From the NCBI GenBank assembly GCA_002633005.1, contig NMRA01000018.1:580094-644093 (forward strand): a stretch of DNA of 64,000 bases, in the 5' to 3' direction. The stretch is from Phoronis australis. Its lineage: Eukaryota > Animalia > Phoronida. Below, in pieces: positions 12,201-52,908 of the stretch. The notes beneath the pieces are model-generated. The model was given only the letters and a program-made list of their open reading frames with translations, ran no database searches and was not told the DNA's origin. A program made the translations under genes and the position numbers. Each line of letters begins with the position of its first letter. The stretch's first letter is position 1.

Positions 12201-15200
12201 GTGCCCGATTCCCTCATGGTCACCACCACATTCCACATTATTCAGTGCATTATTCAGTTGCAGTAAGTGGTTCTTCGTGAATTTAAAAACGGGACTATCC
12301 ACCATTGACCTGGCCATAGTAGAGACAGTAAACATCCCATTGACCTTTCATATGCCGGAAGCTTTTTCGCAAATTATGCCTCACTGATTAAACCATCAAT
12401 GTCACATTGTTATACCGTAATCGTTCGGGTTAACGCCCATGCTCAGTTAACCGCCCACCCCTACTTTAGGTGGATTTTCGATTTAACCGCCCACTGCTCG
12501 GTTAACCGCCCCCCTGCTATTTTTGAAGATTTCCAATTAAGCGCCCACCTCTCGGTTAAGCGCCCATCCCCTACTTTTGACGATTGGTGATTACCGCCCT
12601 GTGCTAATAGGAAACGCGAATCCCCGACCTTTTAGATTAAGATCGATGATAACATTGAGTGCAACGACGGCCTCAGAGACCGCGGTTTAGCAATGTGAAT
12701 TATNCATCGACCTCGGGAAACATCGGAATAGGAAAACGTCAGTTCTGGGTTATATCGGTCCCGGTACATCGGGAATGAAAAGTTCGCTAACTTGAACCAC
12801 AATTTCGCATCTAGTGCCAGTGTAGTTGCAATAACAATATCTACGGGCATAGAATACATGTACAGGGTTTACAGAACATCGACCTCGGGAAACATCGGAA
12901 TAGGAAAACGTCAGTTCTGGGTTATATCGGTCCCGGTACATCGGGTCTTTTATAACCGCTGGGAATCTGAGTTTATTTTCAAATAAACCAGAGCCAAGCC
13001 GGTATACTCTTTCATTTATGACTGTCGCTTCTCCTTGAAGTGGTGCGCGCGCGTGTTCACGCACTTGCAATGAATCGCTGGAGTAGGCCTACACTTTACG
13101 TTGGCAACAACGTGTGAAAGATAAATCATATTTCGCGCACGTAGCCCCAGAAAACAAGGGGTTTGAGAATTTCTTGGCAACTGAAAGTGAAGACGTGAGC
13201 GTCGTTTGGCGATTAATAAGGTTGTCATTTTCACTTTGGCTGTCTTAATACGATAAAAAGGAGAAGCACATCTCAGTCTAAGTCACAATTGTGTGCCGGG
13301 ACCGCTTGCGCGCTAACGGTGCCGCAGTACGATATCAGGGACATTGTCGTGGATATTTGGTACATGTAATAAGGACATCTTATGTGAAAAAATAAACATT
13401 TTTGTCCACCACAAAGTTTGGTAAGTTGATCGCTTAAGACTTAGTAGAAACACCGTTGTTTTCTGAAGTTTTATCACGTGTTAAGCAGTGGCCCGTAACT
13501 TTCTTCGGCGAATCCGGGAATTTACAAAAGTGGCCGAAAGTGTTAGCCAATGAAACGCGTCAAAGATCGATTCTGCATATCCCATGTTCACGCGACTTGC
13601 TTACAAGTCATCGGGAGGGCTGTTCTCGGTTGGCTATGTTTTGAACTTGGATTTGGCAACGACCAAATAACGGTCGGATTAACAAGAGCTGCTTTGTATT
13701 TGCCAGGTATCTGTTTAGAAGTGTAAAAACTCAGCTCACATTCGTTGGAAATTCCAGGTCGCATTTTGCGACTTGATACGAGCTGACAAAAATCTCAGCT
13801 CGCATTTCCAAATTTCAGGTCGCAAATGCGACCTGCAGCTCGTTATGTCGAGCCCTGCAAGGACTCATCTAGTGGCTGTCCTGGCCATTATTGGGATGGT
13901 CGTTTTAAAAAAATGACTTTGGATTTGGATGGCACAGCCAAGTCAGAAATGCTTTTGGGAATACCTTCCTTTTCTGTGACATCAGAGTGACTTCATATAG
14001 AATTACCCGCACGGCAAGTGTTGAGAAATATTGCATCCAGTGCTAACTACCCATACATAGACAATTAATCTTTGAAACTGAAGTATACAGTCCTGAAGTT
14101 CAAAGGATTTGCTGTTCCCCTAATGCCATTAGCCGACGCCGAAGTTGAAGAGGCACTCTCGAAGTGTAATCGACAGTGCAGCCATCGAGATAGGAGAATA
14201 TACACGTTAAAAAAAATGATATCTGCCAAAATTCTAGGACTGACCTGCCATACAAATGCCTTCAATGTCTTTGAACTTGCAAACCAGATAAAAGCTAGTG
14301 CAAACGTCCTTAATTTGTTCACACTGTTCCGTTGCAGCTCGATTGCTTGCTCATAAGTTAAAATTGTCTTCCTCAACTGCATTAAATTAAAACACTTCTA
14401 ACACTTCTCTTTTGATAGCTTCAGGATACAAGTTCTGAAGTCATGCTGAGAATTATCTGTCTAACATGCAACTCCACAAAGATCATCTTACAAAAAAGAT
14501 TAGCTGATCTTGGTTTTTGTAGCTCAATACACACATTCTGAATGGAACAAACCAGTTAATGTTTGTTTAGTTTACTTCTTTGCCATCCTTTGAACAAGAA
14601 AAAAATCCAAACAGTGTGCTAAAAGGACACTGACATTTTTTNCGACTCGCCAGTCTCATGAATTTGGACCCCACTTTAAAAATCCTAGATGAGTCTCTGC
14701 ATTGATGGCCTCCTAAGGTGTACCTAAATGTGCAAAAGGTACTTATAGCAACGTGACTTTGGTGGTTTAATCAGCGTGAGGCAATAATTCGACGAAAAGC
14801 TTCCGATGTATGAAGGCCCTACGGGAGCATCACCATCTCTACTGAGAGACGGTGGTAATGTCTAGCAGACGATTTGATTTGTCGTTTTTAGAGAAAGGTA
14901 AAAGGAAGCGGAATATAACCAGTTAAGCGTGTTTATGCTTCCTTAAATATCCTAAGGGAATTCCATTTGGTAAAGTAATAACACACTCAACGTATATTCC
15001 TATCTTCTTCTGACTGATATCCATTTCACAAAAAAAATCTTGGATGGACTTATAAATCAGGTCTGTTAAAGCTAGTTTTTGCTACAGGTTATTTAATTAA
15101 AAGAGGTGGATCACACAAACAAATTCGTCAAATAAAGCTCATAACACAGACACGCTCAACAGCTCCTCCATGTTATAGGCCTACTGTGTCGTGTCGAGGA

Positions 15201-18200
15201 ATCGATTAAACGTGCATGTGCTCAGACTCTGAGCAGGAAATGGAGACTCTCGGACCCCAGAGAAATGACTTGCAAAAAACAATCCATTTTCACACGCAAA
15301 TGTAAGCTCAATTAATGGACTTTTGAGACAGCAATATCCACTGGTAAACAGTTAAATCCGCAATATCAATTACACATTATCACTTACAGCTCAGTTGGTA
15401 ATGGCAATCTGTTTTCTCTTCGTAAAAACCACTCAGCCACATGGCAAAGAAAGAATGGTCGTTAGTATAAAGGTCAAGGTCATTGTCTTGAATGGATTCA
15501 TCCAGAAGAGTCTACTTTACACTATTCCATAGGGGTGTCAAAATGATGTTGAAGTCATTCATTCATGCAGCTTCTACTGCATCAAACAACAGAAAAAATG
15601 AGAATTACACAGTACAACCAGAGTGTAGTAGAGTAGAAGAGTTCACTTGTGAGTTCGCTGTTACCGCTACTACTAGCGCCGCCAAGTGGTGACTTAGCAA
15701 CTGTCAACCAAGACGCGCCAAAACAATGGGGAAGGACGCATTTTGCAGTGCGATAAATTGCATGAAGTCATCCACGAAAACCCCAGACGTGTCATTTTGT
15801 AGGTTTCCTAAGGATCCAGAAAGGTAAGGATTATCTGTTATTCAATAATATGATACATTGTCTTTCATTTTGTGTGTTCTGTTCACGGTTGTTAGACAAG
15901 TCGATCGCAATCCCGTTGCCTCTTTTGTCTGCAGTGTTGAGTGTAGGCTACGTACAGCCGGGCTGCCGGCGGAAGGACTATGATGAACGTACGATGTGAT
16001 CGTCAGCTTTTTGGATACTTGCAGTCCATGAATTCCAAATCAAAATGTCACTCGCACGGTCGCAGGGATAATTTTAGGAAAACATGCCCATGGCCATGGG
16101 ACTGGTGACACGGCCATGGCACAATCACAGCCACAGGGCCACAAGTCTGTCATGANNNNNNNNNNNNNNNNNNNNNNNNNNNNNNNNNNNNNNNNNNNNN
16201 NNNNNNNNNNNNNNNNNNNNNNNNNNNNNNNNNNNNNNNNNNNNNNNNNNNNNNNNNNNNNNNNNNNNNNNNNNNNNNNNNNNNNNNNNNNNNNNNNNNN
16301 NNNNNNNNNNNNNNNNNNNNNNNNNNNNNNNNNNNNNNNNNNNNNNNNNNNNNNNNNNNNNNNNNNNNNNNNNNNNNNNNNNNNNNNNNNNNNNNNNNNN
16401 NNNNNNNNNNNNNNNNNNNNNNNNNNNNNNNNNNNNNNNNNNNNNNNNNNNNNNNNNNNNNNNNNNNNNNNNNNNNNNNNNNNNNNNNNNNNNNNNNNNN
16501 NNNNNNNNNNNNNNNNNNNNNNNNNNNNNNNNNNNNNNNNNNNNNNNNNNNNNNNNNNNNNNNNNNNNNNNNNNNNNNNNNNNNNNNNNNNNNNNNNNNN
16601 NNNNNNNNNNNNNNNNNNNNNNNNNNNNNNNNNNNNNNNNNNNNNNNNNNNNNNNNNNNNNNNNNNNNNNNNNNNNNNNNNNNNNNNNNNNNNNNNNNNN
16701 NNNNNNNNNNNNNNNNNNNNNNNNNNNNNNNNNNNNNNNNNNNNNNNNNNNNNNNNNNNNNNNNNNNNNNNNNNNNNNNNNNNNNNNNNNNNNNNNNNNN
16801 NNNNNNNNNNNNNNNNNNNNNNNNNNNNNNNNNNNNNNNNNNNNNNNNNNNNNNNNNNNNNNNNNNNNNNNNNNNNNNNNNNNNNNNNNNNNNNNNNNNN
16901 NNNNNNNNNNNNNNNNNNNNNNNNNNNNNNNNNNNNNNNNNNNNNNNNNNNNNNNNNNNNNNNNNNNNNNNNNNNNNNNNNNNNNNNNNNNNNNNNNNNN
17001 NNNNNNNNNNNNNNNNNNNNNNNNNNNNNNNNNNNNNNNNNNNNCGCCGCCAAGTGGTGACTTAGCAACTGTCAACCAAGACGCGCCAAAACAATGGGGA
17101 AGGACGCATTTTGCAGTGCGATAAATTGCATGAAGTCATCCACGAAAACCCCAGACGTGTCATTTTGTAGGTTTCCTAAGGATCCAGAAAGGTAAGGATT
17201 ATCTGTTATTCAATAATATGATACATTGTCTTTCATTTTGTGTGTTCTGTTCACGGTTGTTAGACAAGTCGATCGCAATCCCGTTGCCTCTTTTGTCTGC
17301 AGTGTTGAGTGTAGGCTACGTACAGCCGGGCTGCCGGCGGAAGGACTATGATGAACGTACGATGTGATCGTCAGCTTTTTGGATACTTGCAGTCCATGAA
17401 TTCCAAATCAAAATGTCACTCGCACGGTCGCAGGGATAATTTTAGGAAAACATGCCCATGGCCATGGGACTGGTGACACGGCCATGGCACAATCACAGCC
17501 ACAGGGCCACAAGTCTGTCATGACATGAGTCAAGTTAGAGAATCTGTGGGTCTCGGTGAAAAGGTGAAAAAATCAACATTTTAATGTGCCAGTTGGACCA
17601 ATTAATTCTATGTGTCAATGATATGTGGGGGCGCAGCCCTGTTAAAATATCCGTGGATCGACATTTGAGTCCGAGTTTTTTTTCAGTTGACACCAAAATG
17701 CTTTTGTCTCTATCACAATCACAGTACCACATGAATTCTGTAGTGTAGTGTACTTGAGTGTAGGCTACCAGTCTTCTGTGAACCTAGTGAGTATGAGGTT
17801 TGTTCCCGAGTCTCTCAGTCATTGATTTCAGTTCAGTTCAAGTGCAAGCGCTGGGAGCTGACCTTATGAATAGAGATGCAGCCTATTTGTCCAAGAACTG
17901 CAAGTTATGCTTTCATCACTTCGAGGAGTCCATGTTCGTGAATGAAGAACAAGCTGGTATTTACTGCAGTGCCCGAACAATATTTGATGTCCCGAATCCA
18001 CCAAAAATGAAGATGTCAGGCTAAAAAAGTTCTCCGGAAATTATATTACAGCTCTGGAATAGGCTGTTTTGCATTTCTGATTATCGTCTCACAAAGCAAG
18101 TACTGGAACATCACGTGTAGAAAGCAGGACTCGACATAACGAGCTGGAAATGTGAGCTGAGATTTCTGTCAGCTCGTATCAAGTCGCAAAATGCGACCTG

Positions 18201-21200
18201 GAAATTCTGGGGAAATTCTATGGGAAATAGCTAGGGATTGTTTGGATAAAGCTACACCCATTCAATTGCATTCTTTCCGTGGGGGTCCTCAAGTGGTGGA
18301 AAAATGGTTAAAGACATTTCCTAACACATACTTCTCAGTTTCAGGAGTTGGATTAGGTCACATTAGGGGGGACCGAGCTCGCGGGATACGAGCTATTCCG
18401 TCAAAGCGATTGTTGGTGGAAACGGATGCACCTTATAATCATCCAAGTGGCACGGGAATGCGTCAGTCCCATTCCGTATTAATAGGGGAATGGTGCAAGC
18501 AAATAGCGGAAGTCCGGGGAGTTAGCAAGGGAGAAATTTGCAGACTTTCGCGGGATAATCTAGCGTCCTTTATTCATTAAGAAAGGGAGGAAAAGTAAGA
18601 GTAAGGGATTATGTATGGCATGGGGAGAATCACTGCTAGTAGTATGAAATTTGGATGTTAATGTCTTTATTCAGGTGTTGTCTCCTTGGCTTTTTCATCA
18701 GAGTCTGGGAGTCAAAGGGCTCTTTTCCGGCGACCTTATCCATAAGGGTATAATTGGGAAAAGTATGGGTATTTAGTCGTGATTCTTGTTGTTTGTCCAT
18801 ATATGTGTTACAGGTATGGGATGGCACTCCACAAGAGAATGCATGCCTTACATACTCTTACTGTTTCAGAACCAGCTAAGAGGACCCAGTAGAGGGTAAC
18901 TGGGAAGGGGTGGCTGGGAGAACTTCTAGGGGATTTGAATAGGGATGGCTCGGAGTACAATTGGGTAAAATTAAATATCGGAACTGCAATTTGGACTATG
19001 TTGATATTGGGTATATTAGATAGTCTGACTCTTATATCATGGCTGAGTAAGAGAATCTTTTATGGGATGATTGGCTAGATTATCTAGGAGAAATGTCATA
19101 GGGATAGTCCGGCTGAGGTTAACTTTTAATAAGTTTTAAACAACTGGGTTGGTACAGCAGTTCCGATTAACATTACCAGGGAAAGCTCCAAAAAACAGAA
19201 TGGGGAGGAAATGTAGTGAGCCAGTGCATATGTTACGTGAGGTTTAATTGGATAGTCAGGTTCGCGGGCTTCTCTGTTATCTTGGCTGGGATTGGATAAT
19301 GGATGGAGCCTGCTGGGATGGATGATGTAACATGATGTAAAGATGACGTCACGACCTCGTGGTTCACTCGTTCTTCGCACTTGAGAGTCGAAAGAGACAA
19401 GACGCAATCTAATACGACTCCAACGCAATATAACACGACTCCAGCGTAGACTTCAGAGACCTGTATATAACCAGTTAGGTAAGCTGTCTTATAGTTCTAG
19501 TGTATATCAGACTAACGTGGTCGGGGTAAGACACAACACAACGAATGCGAGCTGAGTTTTTACACTTCTCAACAGATACCTGGCAAATACAAAGCAGCTC
19601 TTGTTAATCCGACCGTTATTTGGTTGTTGCCAAATCCAAGTTCAAAAGAACACTAACCGAGAACAGTCCTACTTGTAAGCAAGTCGCGTGAACATGGAAT
19701 ATGCAGAATCGATCTTTGACGCGTTTCATTGGCTAACACTTTCGGCCACTTTTGTAAATTCCCGGATTCGCCGAAAAAAGTTTCGGGCCACTGCTTAACA
19801 CTTACATGTAAAACTTCACAAAACACCGGTGTTTCTACTAATTCTTAAGCAATCAACTTACCAAACTTTGTGGTGGACAAAAATGTTTATTTTTCACATA
19901 AGATGTCCTTATTACATGTACCAAATATCTATGACAATATCCCTGATATCGCACTGCGGCACTGTTAGCGCGCAAGCGGCCCCGGCAGACAATCGTGACT
20001 TAGACTGAGATGTTGCTTCTCCTTTTTATCGTAGTAAGATAGCCAAAGTGAAAATGACAACCTTATTAATCGCCAAACGACGGTCACGTCTTTACTTTCA
20101 GTTGCCAAGAAATTCTCAAGCCCTTTACTTGTTTTTGGGGCTACGTGCGCGAAATATGATTTGTCTTTCACACGTTATTGCCAACGTAACTGAGGGTAGG
20201 CCTACTCCAGCGATTCAAGTGCGTGAACTCACGTGTGCGCACCACTTCAAAGAACAGCGACAGTCCTAAATGAAAGAGTATACCGGCTTGGCTTGGCTCT
20301 GGTTTATTTGAAAATGAACTCAGATTCCCAGCGGTTATAAAAGATCCGACGGTCCCGGGGCCGATATAACCCAGAACTGACGGTTTCCTGTTCCGATGTT
20401 CTGTAAACCCTGTATTGTATGCCCGTAGCCGCTATTGCAACTAANATGTTCTGTAAACCCTGTATTCTATGCCCGTAGCCGCTATTGCAACTAAACTGGT
20501 GCTAGATGCGAAATTGTGGTTCAAGTTAGCGAACTTTTCATACACCCCTCCCCCCCGGCAATTTTTCGCTCCCCGAACCACCGTCGCCGTAAAATGTCCA
20601 GACTCCTATAGAAACAACCTTGTTCCGGCTGAAGGGGACAGTTAAAAACAAAATCATTCCGGGTGGCTAAAAAGGTACAATGTAGGTGGTAACGATATCC
20701 AGAAAGACACCCCTACTAGATGGAGTTTGCCTCGCGAAATCCTATTATTATAACGTTTCTTACCATTGCAGCGTTTTAATATCTTATTACCGCAAACACT
20801 GAGGTTAACGACTATGCTCACGCACAAGCCTACTCCCTACCTTTAAAGTGTTTCGTAATAACCGCTCTCTGATCTATTAAAAGTCCCCCCTTAAATTTTG
20901 AGAATTTCCAATTAAGCACCCACAGTTCAAGCTAGCGCCCATCATAGCGCACTACAAACGACCGCGTGTGATTTAAAATTGTCACGCAGCTTATATGGTG
21001 TGTCACTTTCATTTTACACAACTTCAGTTTTCAAAAACGTCTTTTCACAATATGTAAAAACCAAATCCCGGCTTTGTTTTATACCTCGGAAAGAAAATTA
21101 ACACTAGTGACATGCATGTCGTTATGTGACTGACCTATTTTTCCCGTACTTGGAAGGTATTGAGGAGCAAACTCGCCATTACCCGAGTTAGTTTGAATCG

Positions 21201-24200
21201 TTAACGACTTTGATGACAGCCAGTAGCAGGCCAGATCTAACAAAATCCCGGATACTTTTTCAACGAGCATTTTCTCCTTTTCACATCGCAAATTTAGCTA
21301 CTCGAATGCACAAGTCAGTTAGAGAGCACTGATTCAACTTTCACGTCAGCAACTTGCCTTGCGCTCTAGAGTCTTTCAATGGCGGTCGTGAAGAACAGTA
21401 AGGCCGTACCTGCATGACTTCGGAAGTCAATTTTGAGATCCGAAATTTGTGAGTATTTAACGCTGCATGTAAAAGCATAATCTAAACATTTTCTCGATGA
21501 TCTAAAACATCTATTTTGGTGCGTAAAAATGGCGGGAGAATTTTGCGACCTGGCATTTACGAATGCGAGCTGGATTTTGAAAATGCGACCTGGGATTTGG
21601 GCTAGGTCGCAAAATGCGACCTGGCGATTTTAATAGCGTCGAGCCCTGGAAAGGACAATTAATCAAAATCTGATTTTCGTATTTTACTAAGGTTGATCAG
21701 ATTGAAACATTTTATGAATGGTTAAATGGTTAACCTGTGATTTGGAGAGAGCTGTAGTAATAGCCGAGATTACCCGACTCGGGGATCGAACCCGCGACCC
21801 CCATAAAACCGGCAAGCGTGCTAACCATTCAGCTAATAGGCAATTGCCCGTTAGCGAGTAGCTAACAGAGGCTCATATAATTCACCGGAAGCACATCTAC
21901 AACAGAGCCAAAGTGAAACAGATGGATCATTCAAAGTCTGAATGGTGGGCTGAAATTTTGTTAAACCCAAGCTATCCATATCATTTTGCTTCTCGATGAC
22001 AAACACCTCTGTGAGTAAATTAGTTTTCAGCTTTATTCATAATGTATTTCTTTGGCGAAAAGTGCTGTTGTTTACTAGTGAATTAATAGAGAGTGACAAG
22101 GCTGGTCAGATTTTATTGTTGTATTGGTTGATGTATGTGTTGCCTATTATGTACGTTTTTGGAGATTGTGATTAATTTAAGCCCCAGTTGTAGCTAGATG
22201 TATCAGATATGATCTTGTGGTTTGGCTTTAACTTACTGTTATTGATAATAGGAACAGTGGGTATATAAAATAAAATTTTGGTTTTATCATCCAAGTCTTT
22301 TTAATTCAATTTTGTATGAAGCTATGTGGGTAGTGAATATTTTGATTGCTGTTCAGTACCTCCTTTGTCATGACATTTGAAGTTGGACTAGTTATGAGTG
22401 ATGATATACTCAATATGTTACTTCTAAAGATTAGCAACTGACTTGTAACTGTTGGTGAGTGGGAGAGTGGGATTGAGTTTACCCTATACTGGCATGTCTA
22501 AGAAATAATGGAATGTTCTACAATTGTATTATGATATTGTGGTAGTGATGAATTGCCTTGCATTCTTCTTCTCACTTGTGTAACACCCACTGCACAAAAC
22601 AATTGTCTGCATTGCTAGTGGCCTGGTGCATTGAATAGGGAACACATGTGAAATTGTTGGGTGGAGATGAAACCAGCAGTGAGCTGGGAGCAACATGTTT
22701 GTCAATGGTCAGGGGAGCAACCAAAATGTGTGACGATGGGAGAGGCTCAACACCCATGTGGCATACATGCCCATTAGTTTTTACCTATTTAGCACTCCTC
22801 CCATGTAACCCCCCTGGGAGGGGGTCAACACCCATTTGGCGCCCACCTGGTTTTTGCCTGGTACCCCCTTAGCTGGCACCTGGGGGTTATTCCTGTCTGA
22901 ATCCCCAGGAGTAATCATTCAAATTATGTTACAGTAGTCCATGGAGGTATGAACTGTTATAAGGAACGATAATTGCCGTGTTAAGAACTCAAACATGAAA
23001 CAAAACCATGGTGGATTTTGAAGGGAGCTTCAGGAGAATAAAAACAAATACACTGATACATTGATTAAAATACATATTTTCTTTCTCATTCGATTGTAAG
23101 TGGATGTTAGTTTATGTATTCTAACCATTTTCAATCACACAGTAATTTTATTGCACGTAGAATGCCATTAAAGTATGAATTTATGAGTGTTTACATTGTT
23201 CGGACTGCACTCCTAACTAAGTGTTGATTATTCACCGCTTGGGGCGTTAGTGTTTGGACCGGTAACCATTGCGGGGAATGGCAAAATGGCGGAGTGAACT
23301 CTCCTGCCTACTACACTGCTTGGTACAAGCCATCTGAAACTCTCAATGCATCAACCAATAATAGGGTTAAAGTTACATGTACCCCTAATTCACAGAAATA
23401 CCATTAAAAGCATCTAACTAAGCCACTAACTATGGAAAATCCCACATGGTTTTTGAACATTTTTATGAAAGTTTTAATACCGATAGTTTGGTGAATGCTG
23501 GTGAAAGGACATTTCCCTATCAGTTTATTTTTTAAAAACAACATTTATGCCAAAAATGCATGCTCATGCAACTAAGAGAATGGTATAGTGTAGTGAATGA
23601 CATGTCTCGATTCCTAATTTCAGAAAATCTATATGGTTACCTTGAATATTGACAGTTGCTAGCTAATTGATAATTCAAGACGAGAACAATTTAATTAGGG
23701 AACACATAATTTTTAAGTTTAATTTTATTAACATTTATTTATGCTGTGTGATTTTGTGTTTAAAGCAGTTAATAGAAAAAGTGGCAATTACTGTAAACAT
23801 TCGTGTTAATGGCTTAGGTGCTTAAAGGGGCTGCGTCAGTGTTCTTCACTACAGAAAATTCAAACATAACTCGAATTACAAAATTAATTTACATACTGTG
23901 GGGAGTTTGTGTGAAGTCCTGGAATAAATGCACTAATTTAATACTATAAGTCCTAATTTGCTTATCGTAACAGTAAATTACTAAAACTAATACAGTATTC
24001 GCCCTAATAAGCGCCCATGCCCCTATTAGGGCCCCCACGCGTTTTCAGTCTTTGCTAAAATAAGCGCCCAGTCCATGAATGTGTACACGAGAAAAATGCC
24101 TTAGCAACAGTTCTAAAATTCTACAGTAACATTTTCAATTTATCAGTCAGATCCGACAGTCCTGAAAAAATCACTGCACGGAATTTGTAGACCAGGAGCC

Positions 24201-43039: not shown

Positions 43040-46000
43040 AAGAGAGAAAACACTTTTATTTACATTACATTATAATAATACAATAATTAAAATTTGATTT
43101 CAATTAGGAGGCCTTCTAAAGGTTATTGACCACTAATAAGAAGGTCCCCTGTACAAAATAAATAAACGGAAATGCAAAAATCAGTAGGAAAGCTTAAGAA
43201 AAAGTGAATTAGTGCTGAAAACGACCCACGTGCCAGGAGCCAAGAAATAAACTGGCACAGCTCAGGAGATTTTGAGAATACAATTAGATACGGTTACATA
43301 TGAAGCAATTGGAAATATGACAAACTGGATCGTAGTTGCTAATAATAAAATTGGTTAAGAACCTGCAGAATGCTTGCAAAGAATATGTTTTTATTATATT
43401 TAGAGCAGAGACTGGTATTTCGTTGTTGTTTGTAAGTCGAGGAATCTCAAATGTAATACAGGCTCTTGATGACAATTTGTTGGACGGAGAAGTTAAAATT
43501 TTGGGTTGTATTGTCGGAATAGCAGCTGAGTATTGATTCAGGTATGTAGGAGTTTTAATGTGTCCGGTTGGTTTATATTGGATGGGTTTACTAAAGAAAT
43601 TGTTAGTACAAAAATACGTAGGAAGCTGATTATTGAGGAATTTATAGTAAAATTTTACAGTTGAGGTCTTAAAGATGTCTAGAAGTACATGTAGAGGAAG
43701 GCGAAGTTCCTTACATATGGGCAGAGAGTGAGCATTATAACTGGAATTTGATATATTCCTAAGGATTCTCTTCTGGGCTGTCTGAAGTTTCTTAGTGTTG
43801 CCAAAACTTCAAGTTGCAATGCCATAGTTTAAATGTGGGAGGACAAGTGAATTATATATCAACTTGAGAGCTAGAGGAGGAAGATGAGATTTCAACTGAT
43901 ATAAGAGTCCACCGATATTGTTAAGTTTGTTTGAGCTGAGGTTAATGTGGGGGACCATGAGAGGTTTTTGTCAACAGTAATACCAAGGAAAGGGAAACTG
44001 TTCACATGACATATTGTTTTGCTATTTATATAAATGGAGGGAATAATACATTTTTCAATTTTCTTTTTGGTGTAGTGGAAGATTATTAATTTACTTTTTG
44101 ATGTGTTAATTGAAAGTTTTTTCACGGAAAACCAGTCTGAAATAGATTTAAGGTTGTTGTTGATGGTGGTTGATTGCTGTAAAGTTTGTTGGGAAGATTC
44201 AGTCAGTTTGTAAGGTGTGACGAGGCAAGTGTCGTCAGCATAAAGAAGTGTGTCCATGGGCGAAGAAAACGAAAGATCATTTATGTAAACTAGGAAGAGA
44301 AGTGGGCCAAGGGCAGAGCCTTGGGGAACTCCGGTAGATATTGGTAACCAACTGGAAGTTGTATCACTTAATGAAACATATTGGGTGCGGTTTGAGAGAT
44401 AACTTTGAAACAGTGTATATTCAACGCCAGTAATACCATAGTGATTTATCTTTTGCAAGAGTATTTGGTGGTCTATTGTGTCGAAAGCTTTAGAGAGATC
44501 AAGAAAGATGACCAGGGGATTCATGTCATAATCAAAATGGGAACAAATGCGGTCTAAAAGTTCAAGCGAAGCAAGTTCTGTAGAGTGACATTTCCTGAAA
44601 CCATATTGATGTTTATTAAGAATATCATTTTCATCTAGGAAAGTTGAAAGTTGAGTATGGATATTTTGTCTATAATTTTTGAGATTGTTGGAAGAATAGA
44701 AATGGGTCTATAATTGCCCGGGTGCTCTGGTCCAAACCATGTTGCTTAAAAACTGGGATTACCTTTGCAATCTTTAGAGCATCTGGAAATATACCAGTGA
44801 GCAAGCACTGGTTGATGATGGTCGTGAGAGGTTCAATTGTAAAAGGACTGCTTATTTTGATAATTTTAGATGATAAATTGTCATGACCTGTACTATTTTT
44901 TGTGTCCATGTCTCTTGTAATATCTAATACTTGTTTATTATTAATTAGTTTGAAAGAGAACTTAAATTTGTTTGGCGTGGGAAGATAGTCTTTGAAATTC
45001 TTGTATTTTATCATAGTTATTGATTCAGAAGGTGAAGAGCCGATTTGGGTAAAGTAGGTGTTGAATAAACTCGCCATTTCGGGTAGGTAACTGGTTTTAG
45101 TGTTATCTGAACGTAAAAGACATTCTGGGGTATCATTTTTTGGTTCGGACGCCGTTGTTCATAACTGTCTTGATTGTATCCCATGTTTTATTTATGTCAG
45201 ACTTTCCTTTTTCGAATGTGTCATAATAGTAGGATGCTTAGCGGAATCAACAGTTTTTTGAGAATCTTGTTGTATACTTTTAGTTTGTTGTGGAGTGTAG
45301 CGTAGGATTGTGTATTGCTAGGTGTTGTCTTGGTTTGTTTTTACAGTTAATCTCCGTAACGAATGGAAATTAAAATACCAGGGCTGAGTTGCATAAAGCT
45401 TCAAAAGATATCCGCTGGATAAGTTTGATTGTTGCATGACGTCATGTGCATTGTTCAACAATAACAACGTGACGCGTGATAATGCGACGTCATTGTTGCT
45501 ATGCGGCGTATAACTTTTATGCAACTGGGCCCAGGTGTAATCCACGAGTTAAGCGCGTGTTTGTGTTTATTATGTCTAACAAAGTGTTTTTTGTGAGATA
45601 TGTTTTTCGTGAGATATGTCAAAGTATCACCCAGTATTGCGTAGTTGTGATTGGGGTCACAATCTAAGCTGCGGCCTAGCTTTTCCATGATATTGCAGTT
45701 CCGCAAGCTATTGAGAAAGTGAGTTTTTGTTTGCTGTGTGTAAGAATATTTTGAGACGAAAGTAGGGCGTTTAGGGTTGATTTTCTTTATTGATTATGAA
45801 GCAATGAAGATAGGACAGTGGTCTGAAATCGAAGAGAGAAGAATACCAGAGTGTGTATAGAGTATATGTATGTGACCGTATGATGTTGATGTAAAAAATT
45901 ATCTATTAAAGTTGCTGATGTGGGGCTAAGACGTGTAGGGTATGTAATTGAAGGTCTTAAATTGTGATCTGTCATAAAATCCAGGAATGTTTGAACTTTA

Positions 46001-46750
46001 TTATTTGTTTGTGTCTCTAGAAGTTTTAAGTTGTAATCGCCACCTAAAATCAGACGTGTTTCAGGCTGATTTTGAAGGTTTTCGATGATGGGACAGAACT
46101 CTTCAATAAACACGTCAAAGGTTCTAACGATTGAAGTCGGCGGTCTGTAAAAGTTTCCGACGCAGATTATTTTGTTGTTAATAGAGATAAAAGTGAGTAG
46201 GCCTTCGAACGTAGAATAAGTATCAAGAACTTGAATTGTTTTGACAGGAGGATTTTCATTTACGTAAGTGATAAGGCCACCGTGTGTTGAACATAAGCCT
46301 GATGCAGGTTTGGAGTACATGTTGTAACCGTCAATTTGAAAGACTGGAAGGCAGCTGGTCGTACTTAACCATGATTCTTGTATTAAGGTAATGTCGAAAA
46401 ATAATTCTTTAGAGTGGATGTTGTGCAGGAATGATTCAAATTGAGTGAATTTTGCGTTAAGTGATTGAATGTTAATACTTAACACGGTTAGACTTGATTT
46501 ATTTAGTTCAAGAAAGTTTTTAACTCCTTCTGTATCAAAAAATGGGATTTGGTAATTGGAGCCTCGGTGCCACAATCAAGGGACTTATATATGAGACAGA
46601 AATCGAGTGCATTCTCACCTCCATAACTAGATAATAGAGGAGCAGGATCAAGAGCTGCGCCACAAAAGAAAACTGACTTACGTTGTCCATAAATGGGTAT
46701 TAACATGTGTTATTCTTTGATTGGTCCTTGGATATCGGTCGTCATATAAG
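43040..46750 (-). mobile_element. Decayed non-LTR retrotransposon (CR1/L2 group, Crack/Daphne-like) ORF2
   Basis: APE motifs (SINIQSL, IQESWL, GGLITY, FYRPP, GGDYN, PTR, TLIDN) at 45787-46575. RT motifs (KIAKVIPVFK, FLDLSKAFDTIDH, GVPQGSALGPLLFLVYINDL, YADDT, FLGITVD) at 43892-45077. Multiple frameshifts; 3' aataaa plus microsatellite tail near 43030-43060. Confidence 0.92.
45382..45531. mobile_element. 150-bp Harbinger-type MITE inserted in the LINE
   Basis: TIR ggctgagttgcataaa / tttatgcaactgggcc; 3-bp TSD cag; removing it restores the LINE peptide WITPGILISIR. Confidence 0.85.
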
Positions 46751-51599: not shown

Positions 51600-52908
51600 A
51601 GGCGAAGGCAACTTTTTTCATGTCATTTTTAGCAAAAATAGGGTTCGTTGATTATCCCATACATATTTTTTACTTATTTACAGATTTTCGTACTTTAATT
51701 AATTACTAGTCGTCTACTCCGGAAGTTACGTGTTGGGAGTCAAGAATTTCCCGCCAATTTCTTTTCATACAGTGTGACTGGGAGAGCAGTCGAGCCAGTC
51801 ATTGTTCTACCTCGGTTGTGATAAGTTCGGTCGTCGTTTGCTTTTGTTTATGAGTCAGTCAACATGCCACGCTGTTGCTGCCTACCGAGATGAATTCATC
51901 GTTTCACGTACAGAGGAAGAACTGTCCCACGACACACTCCCACTGGATGGTGACTTGAGCACCTAAACTGATTACATCCCGCCGTGCGACTCCCTTGTCA
52001 CACACGTGGCACCTTCTAAATAGCTCCAATACAAGTCCACAATAAACTTATCAAACTTAGGCTCACCGATCTGTTCATTGGATGACGAACTATCCTTTTC
52101 ACTGGGTGTCAAACTGGGCCTGTATTCACTCCCACTACTCAACATCGCTGCAGGGCTGCTTACAAGCTCTGGGCGAGAGACAACAGCACTCGGGGAATAA
52201 CTACTAGTTTCTGGAATTGCACGCTATGGGATTGGGTACGTTCGGAGGCATGGGTGACAGTAGATGAAGTGCCTCTAGTCACTATATATAGTGGCCACAG
52301 CTTGCGAGGCTTCTCGCTTCAAAAACGCACATCTCGGGGNNNNNNNNNGGTTGTGGCGACGGGGCACTGCCGGGAATCAACAGCGACGGTTTGGAACCCT
52401 TCTTCAGGCGTTGTTTCGCAGGGACCTTCATCAATTCATACATATCTCTGTAGTAATCTGACGGCTGAAAATGCTTGCCACTGCTTTGTGCGTTGCGTGA
52501 ACGGGTAGCGCTGCGTTCTTCACACGAGTGAGCTAGCCAAGTACGGCGAAGTGTGTCATCTTTCGGAAAGCGATGCCTGAGGTACCCAAAGCGCGTGTGA
52601 GACGATAATGAGTACATCCTTGTACGCAGCAACAGCGTGGCATGTTGACTGACTCGTAAACAAAAGCAAACGACGTCCGAACTTATCACAACAGGGGTAG
52701 AACAATGACTGACTCGACTGCTCTCACAGTCAGACTGTATGAAAAGAAATTGGCGCGAAATTCTTGCCTCCCAAAACGTCACATCCGGAGCAGAGGACGA
52801 GAAATTAATTAAATTGCGAAAAGCTGTAATTAAGTGAAATATATGTCTGGGATAATCAACAGACCTTGTTTTTGCTAAAAGTGACATAAGAAAAGGTTGC
52901 CTTTACCT
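51600..52908 (-). mobile_element. Kolobok-like non-autonomous DNA transposon with THAP remnant
   Basis: TTAA TSD both sides; AGG...CCT termini; ~270-bp imperfect TIRs (51600-51870 / 52640-52908); minus-strand HRFPKDDTLRRTW...KHFQPSDY...RLKKGSKPSL is THAP-like. Confidence 0.8.

Follow-up and report, generated by a model that had tools for sequence, protein, structure and literature searches.

The closest described counterparts of the elements reported here are Juno and Vesta of bdelloid rotifers, which likewise combine a Gypsy-like gag-pol with a separate third open reading frame (ORF3) encoding an enzyme in the env slot; their enzyme, too, is a 3'-5' nuclease whose catalytic residues are intact (PMC5408684). 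Env-bearing Ty3/Gypsy elements such as the errantiviruses are similar in having a third, likely spliced ORF after pol (PMC13524379). The HxH motif is the mark of Class II TatDs (PMC10085689), and a Class II (HxH) TatD co-opted in genetic conflict has been described as QatD of the bacterial QatABCD anti-phage system (PMC13434339).

Among cellular proteins, TATDN2 shares with the enzymes described below the Class II HxH motif, the FCDP motif, the seven metal-site residues, and a disordered N-terminus ahead of a C-terminal TatD domain (PMC10711561, PMC12709183, PMC10085689). Human TATDN2 degrades the RNA of R-loops, for whose binding its disordered N-terminus is required, and cuts hairpin RNA both as a 3' exonuclease and as an endonuclease; its cutting of plain RNA:DNA duplex is minimal, it has little DNA nuclease activity, and its AP activity is very weak (PMC10711561). 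In fish, tatdn2 protects germ cells (PMC12709183). As judged by titles and the beginnings of abstracts, no literature report places a TatD in a retrotransposon, and unpublished annotation (Repbase, Dfam, or supplements) is possible. The term TatD is absent from PMC5408684, PMC6238403, and PMC13524379, the last of which also lacks the word "nuclease", and a giant-squid passage merely labels a gene TATDN2.

Here, we analyzed a 64,000-nucleotide stretch of the Phoronis australis genome (the window), which holds an insert at positions 18208-19538. The evidence supports its identification as the 3' end of a Ty3/Gypsy LTR retrotransposon belonging to a large lineage in which ORF3 terminates in a Class II TatD.

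Results

Anatomy of the insert

The insert measures 1331 bp and is composed of the C-terminal half of a TatD, a 3' untranslated region, a polypurine tract (PPT), and a 327-bp TG..CA LTR. The TatD part, which is the end of ORF3, lies at 18209-18580 on the forward strand as 123 codons and a stop, 5'-truncated and without a start of its own; the frame is open from 18161 to 18580, with its first 16 codons made of host-transposon DNA. The 123 amino acids match Pfam TatD_DNase over profile positions 138-251 of 253 (E 1e-15, 58.3 bits; cut-off 27). Three of the seven conserved metal-site residues are retained, namely, the His of QLHSF and the Glu and Asp of ETDAPY, and the other four (the HxH motif, the Glu of GExG, and the His of HxR) are lost. 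The untranslated region (18581-19201, forward strand, ~620 nt) is covered by contigs and RNA reads from other copies. It is followed on the same strand by the PPT at 19202-19211 (run GGGGAGGAAA; purine-rich from 19190) and, directly behind it, by the 3' LTR at 19212-19538, which reads TGTAGTG...CACAACA, with 6 of 7 terminal bases inverted. The first-pass annotation, which had proposed a TatD C-terminal ORF with the LHSF His and the ETDAPY Asp, followed by a PPT and a TG...CA LTR, was thus correct on each of these features.

A single PPT-LTR signature was found in the window where 0.01 would be expected, for a pattern defined after the sites had been seen. The TG at the start of the insert (18208) falls within the TatD frame and marks no LTR end. 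The insert has no target-site duplication (TSD), all host bases are retained, and no poly(A) tail was found next to it in the window sequence. The window copy is the 5'-truncated 3' end of an element, not a complete one, and is likely a dead fragment.

Empty site, host transposon, and surrounding repeats

A paralog of the host transposon on the reverse strand (12775-13857) lacks the insert, with the empty site at 13748/13747; between 13810 and 12775, it matches both flanks, with 18207 fused directly to 19539 and the 1331 bp missing. The same empty joint was recovered in all four sequencing runs (X3, six contigs; X5 and X6, one contig each; X7, 74 reads), and its two sides have no letters in common. 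The absence of the block from a host-transposon paralog, on which the first-pass annotation had relied, is therefore real and extends to host-transposon copies in all four runs. Its view that the block had arrived as one unit needs a refinement, in that the insert represents just a 5'-truncated 3' end without a TSD.

The host is an apparently non-autonomous DNA transposon of 3.5 kb (18125-21648), whose terminal inverted repeats are 11 bp long and which is flanked on either side by GAAAG (a 5-bp TSD); no coding capacity was seen for it. It has subterminal repeats, a related end occurs at 13847-13857, and it may be hAT5-like. It is held by an outer high-copy repeat (17045-18124, forward strand), which resumes at ~21654 and has a paralog at 60081-57683; reads departing at 18124 proceed with letters resembling those from 21654 onward, and a THAP-like two-exon reading of this repeat was made by eye. 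Elsewhere in the window are a tRNA-derived SINE-like insert containing motifs that resemble A and B boxes (~21755-21905, reverse strand; missing in the paralog at 59159-59106), a broken LINE with endonuclease and reverse transcriptase pieces (43284-46575, reverse strand), and a THAP-domain ORF amid local repeats (52282-52902, reverse strand). A 479-bp duplication, 100% identical between 15677-16155 and 17045-17523, flanks an 889-N gap ~700 bp from the insert and is probably a scaffolding artefact.

Other copies and origin of the window copy

At the borders of the LTR (19210-19212 and 19538), contigs and reads diverge into differing flanks, in groups of three contigs (0.58 agreement), two contigs (0.62), two contigs (0.60), and 21 reads (0.61); a further flank sets in exactly behind 19538. 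In five reads, a PBS-like motif lies behind 19535, which we take to resemble a tRNA-Leu primer site. Summed contig depth in X3, which is not copy number, rose from 32 over the TatD to about 330 close to where the LTR begins, a pattern that many solo LTRs would produce. A single upstream sequence, differing from the host flank, is shared by all four runs at 18207, and of a 1034-nt contig, only 439 nt match the window; other copies are thus longer, with the TatD extending upstream of 18207 in every run. As far as this comparison reaches, the results go against two doubts raised in the first-pass annotation, that the LTR might not recur as such or that its copies might never carry a TatD. Contigs from other copies tile the TatD, untranslated region, PPT, and LTR start with overlaps; they differ from the window in seven codons, four of them silently, which is too few for a selection test. 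The left junction (18192-18206) is covered by no contig of the two DNA runs, which come from one sample; it is either absent from that sample or dropped from the contigs, and the joint 18207/18208 rests on the assembly.

This uncovered junction, the lack of a TSD, and the identical duplication across an N-run 700 bp away are what could be said for a host TATDN retrocopy, or a chance or assembly join beside a solo LTR, in place of element cargo. We regard that reading as very improbable, since the contigs of other copies tile the same succession of parts, poly(A) is lacking, the PPT-LTR signature also follows the TatD in relatives, and the protein groups with element ORF3s, outside TATDN2. A processed pseudogene of a host TATDN gene was likewise not supported (no poly(A), no TSD, and at most 41% identity to the rows of the tree).

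The window copy would most likely have arisen through one-ended integration of a broken cDNA, in which integrase would join the CA end and host repair the broken end. This route may account for the precise CA end found without duplication and without loss of host bases. A normal insertion followed by a deletion ending at the TSD edge is the alternative, as is a misjoin. A microhomology-mediated deletion at the left end was rejected because other copies have only one base in common with the host flank.

Relatives with gag, pol, and a TatD-ending ORF3

An initial homolog search gave one match among 69 candidates, and a HMMER search gave 755 proteins at E <=0.001. All 55 long relatives inspected (54 from the best 150 of the 755, plus P0002) contain the TatD, and none of them has a pol domain. 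In a search for pol-TatD fusions among proteins of 983-2805 aa, none of four TatD matches had a pol domain, which is weakly in line with a separate ORF. One relative is a named scallop protein, and another had been deposited as a hydrolase of bacterial origin, its source being a genome bin, which suggested that symbiont bins contain animal DNA. We assume that the bacteria of those bins live in bivalves.

A scan of GTDB with the clade motif yielded 20 loci, comprising 18 of animal type, from three bins, and two ordinary bacterial genes. A pol or integrase/PHD end lies directly upstream of the TatD-ending ORF in 12 of the 18, and the contigs of the remaining six start within or shortly before ORF3. 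Six further contigs from one bin added a whole element (L109) and a pol-linked locus (L114), together with three short contigs and one with a broken TatD. Overall, the TatD ends a third ORF directly behind a Gypsy pol in 14 of 24 animal-type loci, in eight of which gag is present too; the pol-linked loci all come from two genome bins (G001 and G002) and may reflect one or two hosts. Six loci (L093, L094, L098, L102, L103, and L104) present gag, protease, reverse transcriptase, RNase H, integrase, PHD finger, and ORF3 in this order, and L096 has a permuted arrangement; the order of protease, reverse transcriptase, RNase H, and integrase with a gag occurs in these six and in L109. The ends of L096, L098, and L109 overlap by 88-91 nt, as in collapsed repeats or circles. 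Behind LTRs of 245-340 bp, L096, L098, L102, and L104 have a PBS-like motif. The primer sites of the TatD elements are, we presume, of the Ser/Leu type, as in errantiviruses.

A window-like PPT-LTR start follows ORF3 in nine of 18 loci under a loose rule (four tails are shorter than 250 nt). Under a strict pattern, it was present in six of 114 loci, that is, in 6/24 of animal type and 0/90 prokaryotic or viral ones. BLASTN of the window untranslated region and LTR against the element loci gave no match. TSDs were seen for none of the elements, and the contigs of whole elements do not include both flanks. With a generic motif, viral and metagenome contigs gave 8 and 80 loci, respectively, at 25-33% identity, which were taken as prokaryotic TatDs and used as outgroup only; the clade motif was not found in viral contigs. 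The GTDB representative bins behind L089-L106 and L109-L114 contain many animal Gypsy contigs, their ORF3s being deposited as bacterial "TatD family hydrolase"; one bin has 30 matches to the TatD profile, a few of which are ordinary bacterial genes or second pieces.

All 11 loci in which the pol stop is covered have a stop between pol and ORF3. ORF3 is 500-1100 aa long, and the TatD is the sole Pfam domain found in it. Its N-terminal part is long and modeled with low confidence. Before the TatD, most relatives have a conserved Cys/His motif and a helical domain with an HWR motif (e.g., P0010, 380-530), a middle part not noted in the TATDN2-like rows. This middle domain matched no Pfam family, the best Atlas value was 0.79 with a TM under 0.4, and its single-sequence fold reached a pLDDT of 43. 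In five of eight gag ORFs scanned, gag starts with a helix-hairpin-helix domain, and a PHD finger terminates pol in 12 of 12 pol ends of L090-L106 and is missing in L109; no description of a helix-hairpin-helix gag combined with a PHD-finger pol was found in the literature by title and abstract.

The frequent helix-hairpin-helix domain in gag and the PHD finger in the integrase would point to work at the level of chromatin, and could fit an ORF3 that acts on DNA, as an AP endonuclease or 3' exonuclease cleaning cDNA ends or integration gaps. The Class II enzymes TATDN3, YcfH, and YjjV act both as AP endonucleases and as 3'-5' exonucleases (PMC10085689). We consider this role improbable, given that TATDN2, the nearest cellular kin, has so little of either activity (PMC10711561) and that integration gaps are normally filled by host repair.

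The TatD enzyme and its relation to TATDN2

None of the seven metal-site residues is missing in any of the 18 loci, and 65 of 66 relatives keep the full set; the HxH pair was a selection criterion for the 66 proteins, so that the independent test concerns five residues. The predicted structure of one relative (P0038) is a TatD barrel with a pLDDT >80 over the domain, and its best 15 listed PDB matches are TatD-type. The TatD of ORF3 is predicted with good confidence to be an active enzyme.

Each of the 17 element domains compared obtained a better score with a set of 13 TATDN2-like proteins than with one of 20 bacterial proteins, the label TATDN2 being based on five named proteins among the 120 matches listed. 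For the window fragment, the values are 60 bits (TATDN2-like) and 36 bits (bacterial). A single test domain gave 71-100 bits to TATDN2-like proteins versus 27 to human TATDN1 and 20 to human TATDN3. The relative P0006 is about equal on both sets (79.5 versus 78.3), and the bacterial set had been picked using P0006. In the trees, the element TatDs fall outside the conserved TATDN2 clade and form a separate clade, with TATDN2 as the nearest cellular group by score. Taken together, these comparisons make a TATDN2 origin of the element TatD quite probable, and a single capture is likely. This placement and the window protein's identity of at most 41% to the tree rows speak against a near-identical processed copy of the host TATDN gene, which the first-pass annotation had kept in view. 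In most invertebrate TATDN2-like proteins, the nuclease domain is preceded by CCHC zinc knuckles, a feature in keeping with an RNA substrate.

Tree placement, co-divergence, and selection

The quick IQ-TREE tree had 51 rows, of which the window row was 43% filled; four bacterial and four TATDN2 rows, L097, L111, and L113 were left out. An earlier tree omitted, by a motif filter, proteins without the full domain, and TATDN1 and TATDN3 were outside the trees. The element set is separate from the TATDN2-like and bacterial proteins (support 99), and earlier trees were similar. The window protein, at most 41% identical to any row, falls within an eight-row subclade (support 97) that is sister (96) to a group of 13 pol-linked ORF3s; the 14th, L109, branches outside both. 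The window family thus appears to be bracketed by proven elements, with genomic context known for none of the eight rows of its own subclade. From this bracketing and from the PPT, LTR, and PBS-like motif, it is highly probable that the exact family of the window has gag and pol.

Integrase and TatD distances are correlated (Mantel r=0.79, p=0.0002, n=10 elements), and four sister pairs are common to both trees. The TatD is the more divergent of the two (p-distance 0.41-0.68 versus 0.14-0.40), and synonymous sites between families are saturated. This co-divergence points to one old capture followed by vertical descent, as seen in very few hosts. The dN/dS of the TatD is 0.14 (L096/L097), 0.14 (L110/L111), and 0.17 (L110/L109), all with p <1e-7, for three pairs of which two share L110; upstream of the TatD, it is 0.24-0.43. 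By these ratios, the TatD domain of the relatives is under purifying selection. The proposal of the first-pass annotation that an LTR lineage carries a TatD before its PPT thus gains support from the relatives with gag, pol, ORF3(TatD), PPT, and LTR, from the co-divergence with integrase, and from this selection.

The faster divergence of the TatD would also suit a nuclease directed against silencing or competitors, acting on small RNAs, on their precursors, or on the RNA or cDNA of other elements. Such a role could draw on ORF3 being a separate gene, likely with its own mRNA, and on the 3' exo- and endonuclease activity of TATDN2 on hairpin RNA (PMC10711561); a silencing role has also been discussed for the DEDDy ORF3s (PMC5408684). 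The dN/dS values, nevertheless, give no sign of positive selection in the TatD or upstream of it, and the 2'-O-methyl group at the 3' ends of mature piRNAs hinders 3' exonucleases. We therefore consider this role unlikely.

Expression of ORF3 and intact RNase H

An acceptor-like site lies just before the first ATG in seven of 12 ORF3s versus 92 of 1926 background ATGs (4.8%), at a threshold we set ourselves. Together with the stop between pol and ORF3, this suggests that ORF3 is likely produced as env is, and a spliced subgenomic mRNA is its probable source. RNA reads over the TatD, in runs chosen by species label, are shallow (depths of ~1-16 for one-fifth of each run), and in the three raw-read runs almost all of them have one mate direction; they would be antisense if the libraries are of the dUTP type.

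The D-E-D-D pattern of RNase H is kept in all seven pol sequences that cover the region, and the catalytic residues of the integrase are intact. A TatD that substitutes for RNase H was ruled out by this intact RNase H. The same observation bears on a broader possibility, in which ORF3 would be packaged in the particle and would aid reverse transcription, clearing away RNA primers or what is left of the template. TATDN2-type enzymes do cleave DNA-paired RNA in R-loops (PMC10711561), and strand-transfer intermediates would be three-stranded. We judge a particle role decidedly improbable, as the RNase H pattern is kept, plain RNA:DNA duplex is barely cut by TATDN2 (PMC10711561), and ORF3 is unfused to Gag-Pol, from which it is set apart by a stop in 11/11 loci. 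The processing of hybrids during reverse transcription, which the first-pass annotation had put forward as cDNA/RNA-DNA hybrid processing, is disfavored by the intact RNase H and by this weak cutting.

Discussion

The best explanation as a whole, which we hold with moderate confidence, joins the identity of the element with the capture of TATDN2, a spliced ORF3 mRNA, and the clearing of R-loops or structured RNA. The last part is the most tentative: such clearing in the nucleus is our best single guess for the job of ORF3, ahead of the counter-silencing, DNA repair, and particle roles, and is chosen because TATDN2 removes the RNA of R-loops (PMC10711561) and its fish ortholog guards germ cells (PMC12709183). 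Under this reading, the element would use the TatD of ORF3 at its own loci to remove RNA that is structured or bound in R-loops, which may maintain its transcription and protect germ cells against hybrid-linked damage or RNA-guided silencing. Against a TATDN2-like activity, the element domain is far diverged, on long branches, so that its substrate may differ. In its widest form, which we find rather unlikely in full, an old and widespread lineage of marine-animal Gypsy elements would have taken the germ-line TATDN2 as an R-loop resolvase that clears its own chromatin, thereby evading RNA-guided silencing and germ-cell death, and hundreds of its diverged enzymes would have been filed as host or bacterial TatD.

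These results correct the annotation of the clade, whose proteins are listed as uncharacterized scallop proteins or as bacterial "TatD family hydrolase", the latter in Gypsy elements within GTDB bins; it is likely that many sequences entered as "TatD" in animal genomes and in symbiont bins are Gypsy elements of this kind. Furthermore, a whole branch of animal Gypsy elements gains a third enzyme gene that has long been conserved, and a testable question arises, namely, why a retrotransposon with its own RNase H retains a TATDN2-type nuclease under strong selection. For a nuclease class under current study in genome stability and cancer, the clade is also a source of many natural variants.

Compared with known systems, the third ORF of errantiviruses encodes a fusion glycoprotein (PMC13524379), whereas that of the present elements encodes a nuclease. 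QatD belongs to a bacterial host defense, whereas here the nuclease is on the side of the parasite, and no close relation between the two is apparent. In contrast to cellular TATDN2, the element TatD is intronless, multi-family, fast-evolving, and borne by elements, and it forms its own clade (support 99); its ORF3 has no zinc knuckles like those found in most TATDN2-like proteins of invertebrates, and it contains the Cys/His-helical middle domain. The ORF3 of Juno and Vesta has a DnaQ-like DEDDy fold, unrelated to the TIM-barrel TatD found here (PMC5408684), and the TatD ORF3 further differs from it in its 500-1100 aa, its disordered N-terminus, and its novel middle domain. The rotifer DEDDy ORFs were gained at least twice, with no significant departure from neutrality (PMC5408684), whereas the TatD ORF3 co-diverges with integrase and is clearly under purifying selection. 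The rotifer DEDDy ORF3 is the precedent for nuclease cargo (PMC5408684), and what is likely new here is a TATDN2-derived nuclease as the third ORF of a Gypsy element.
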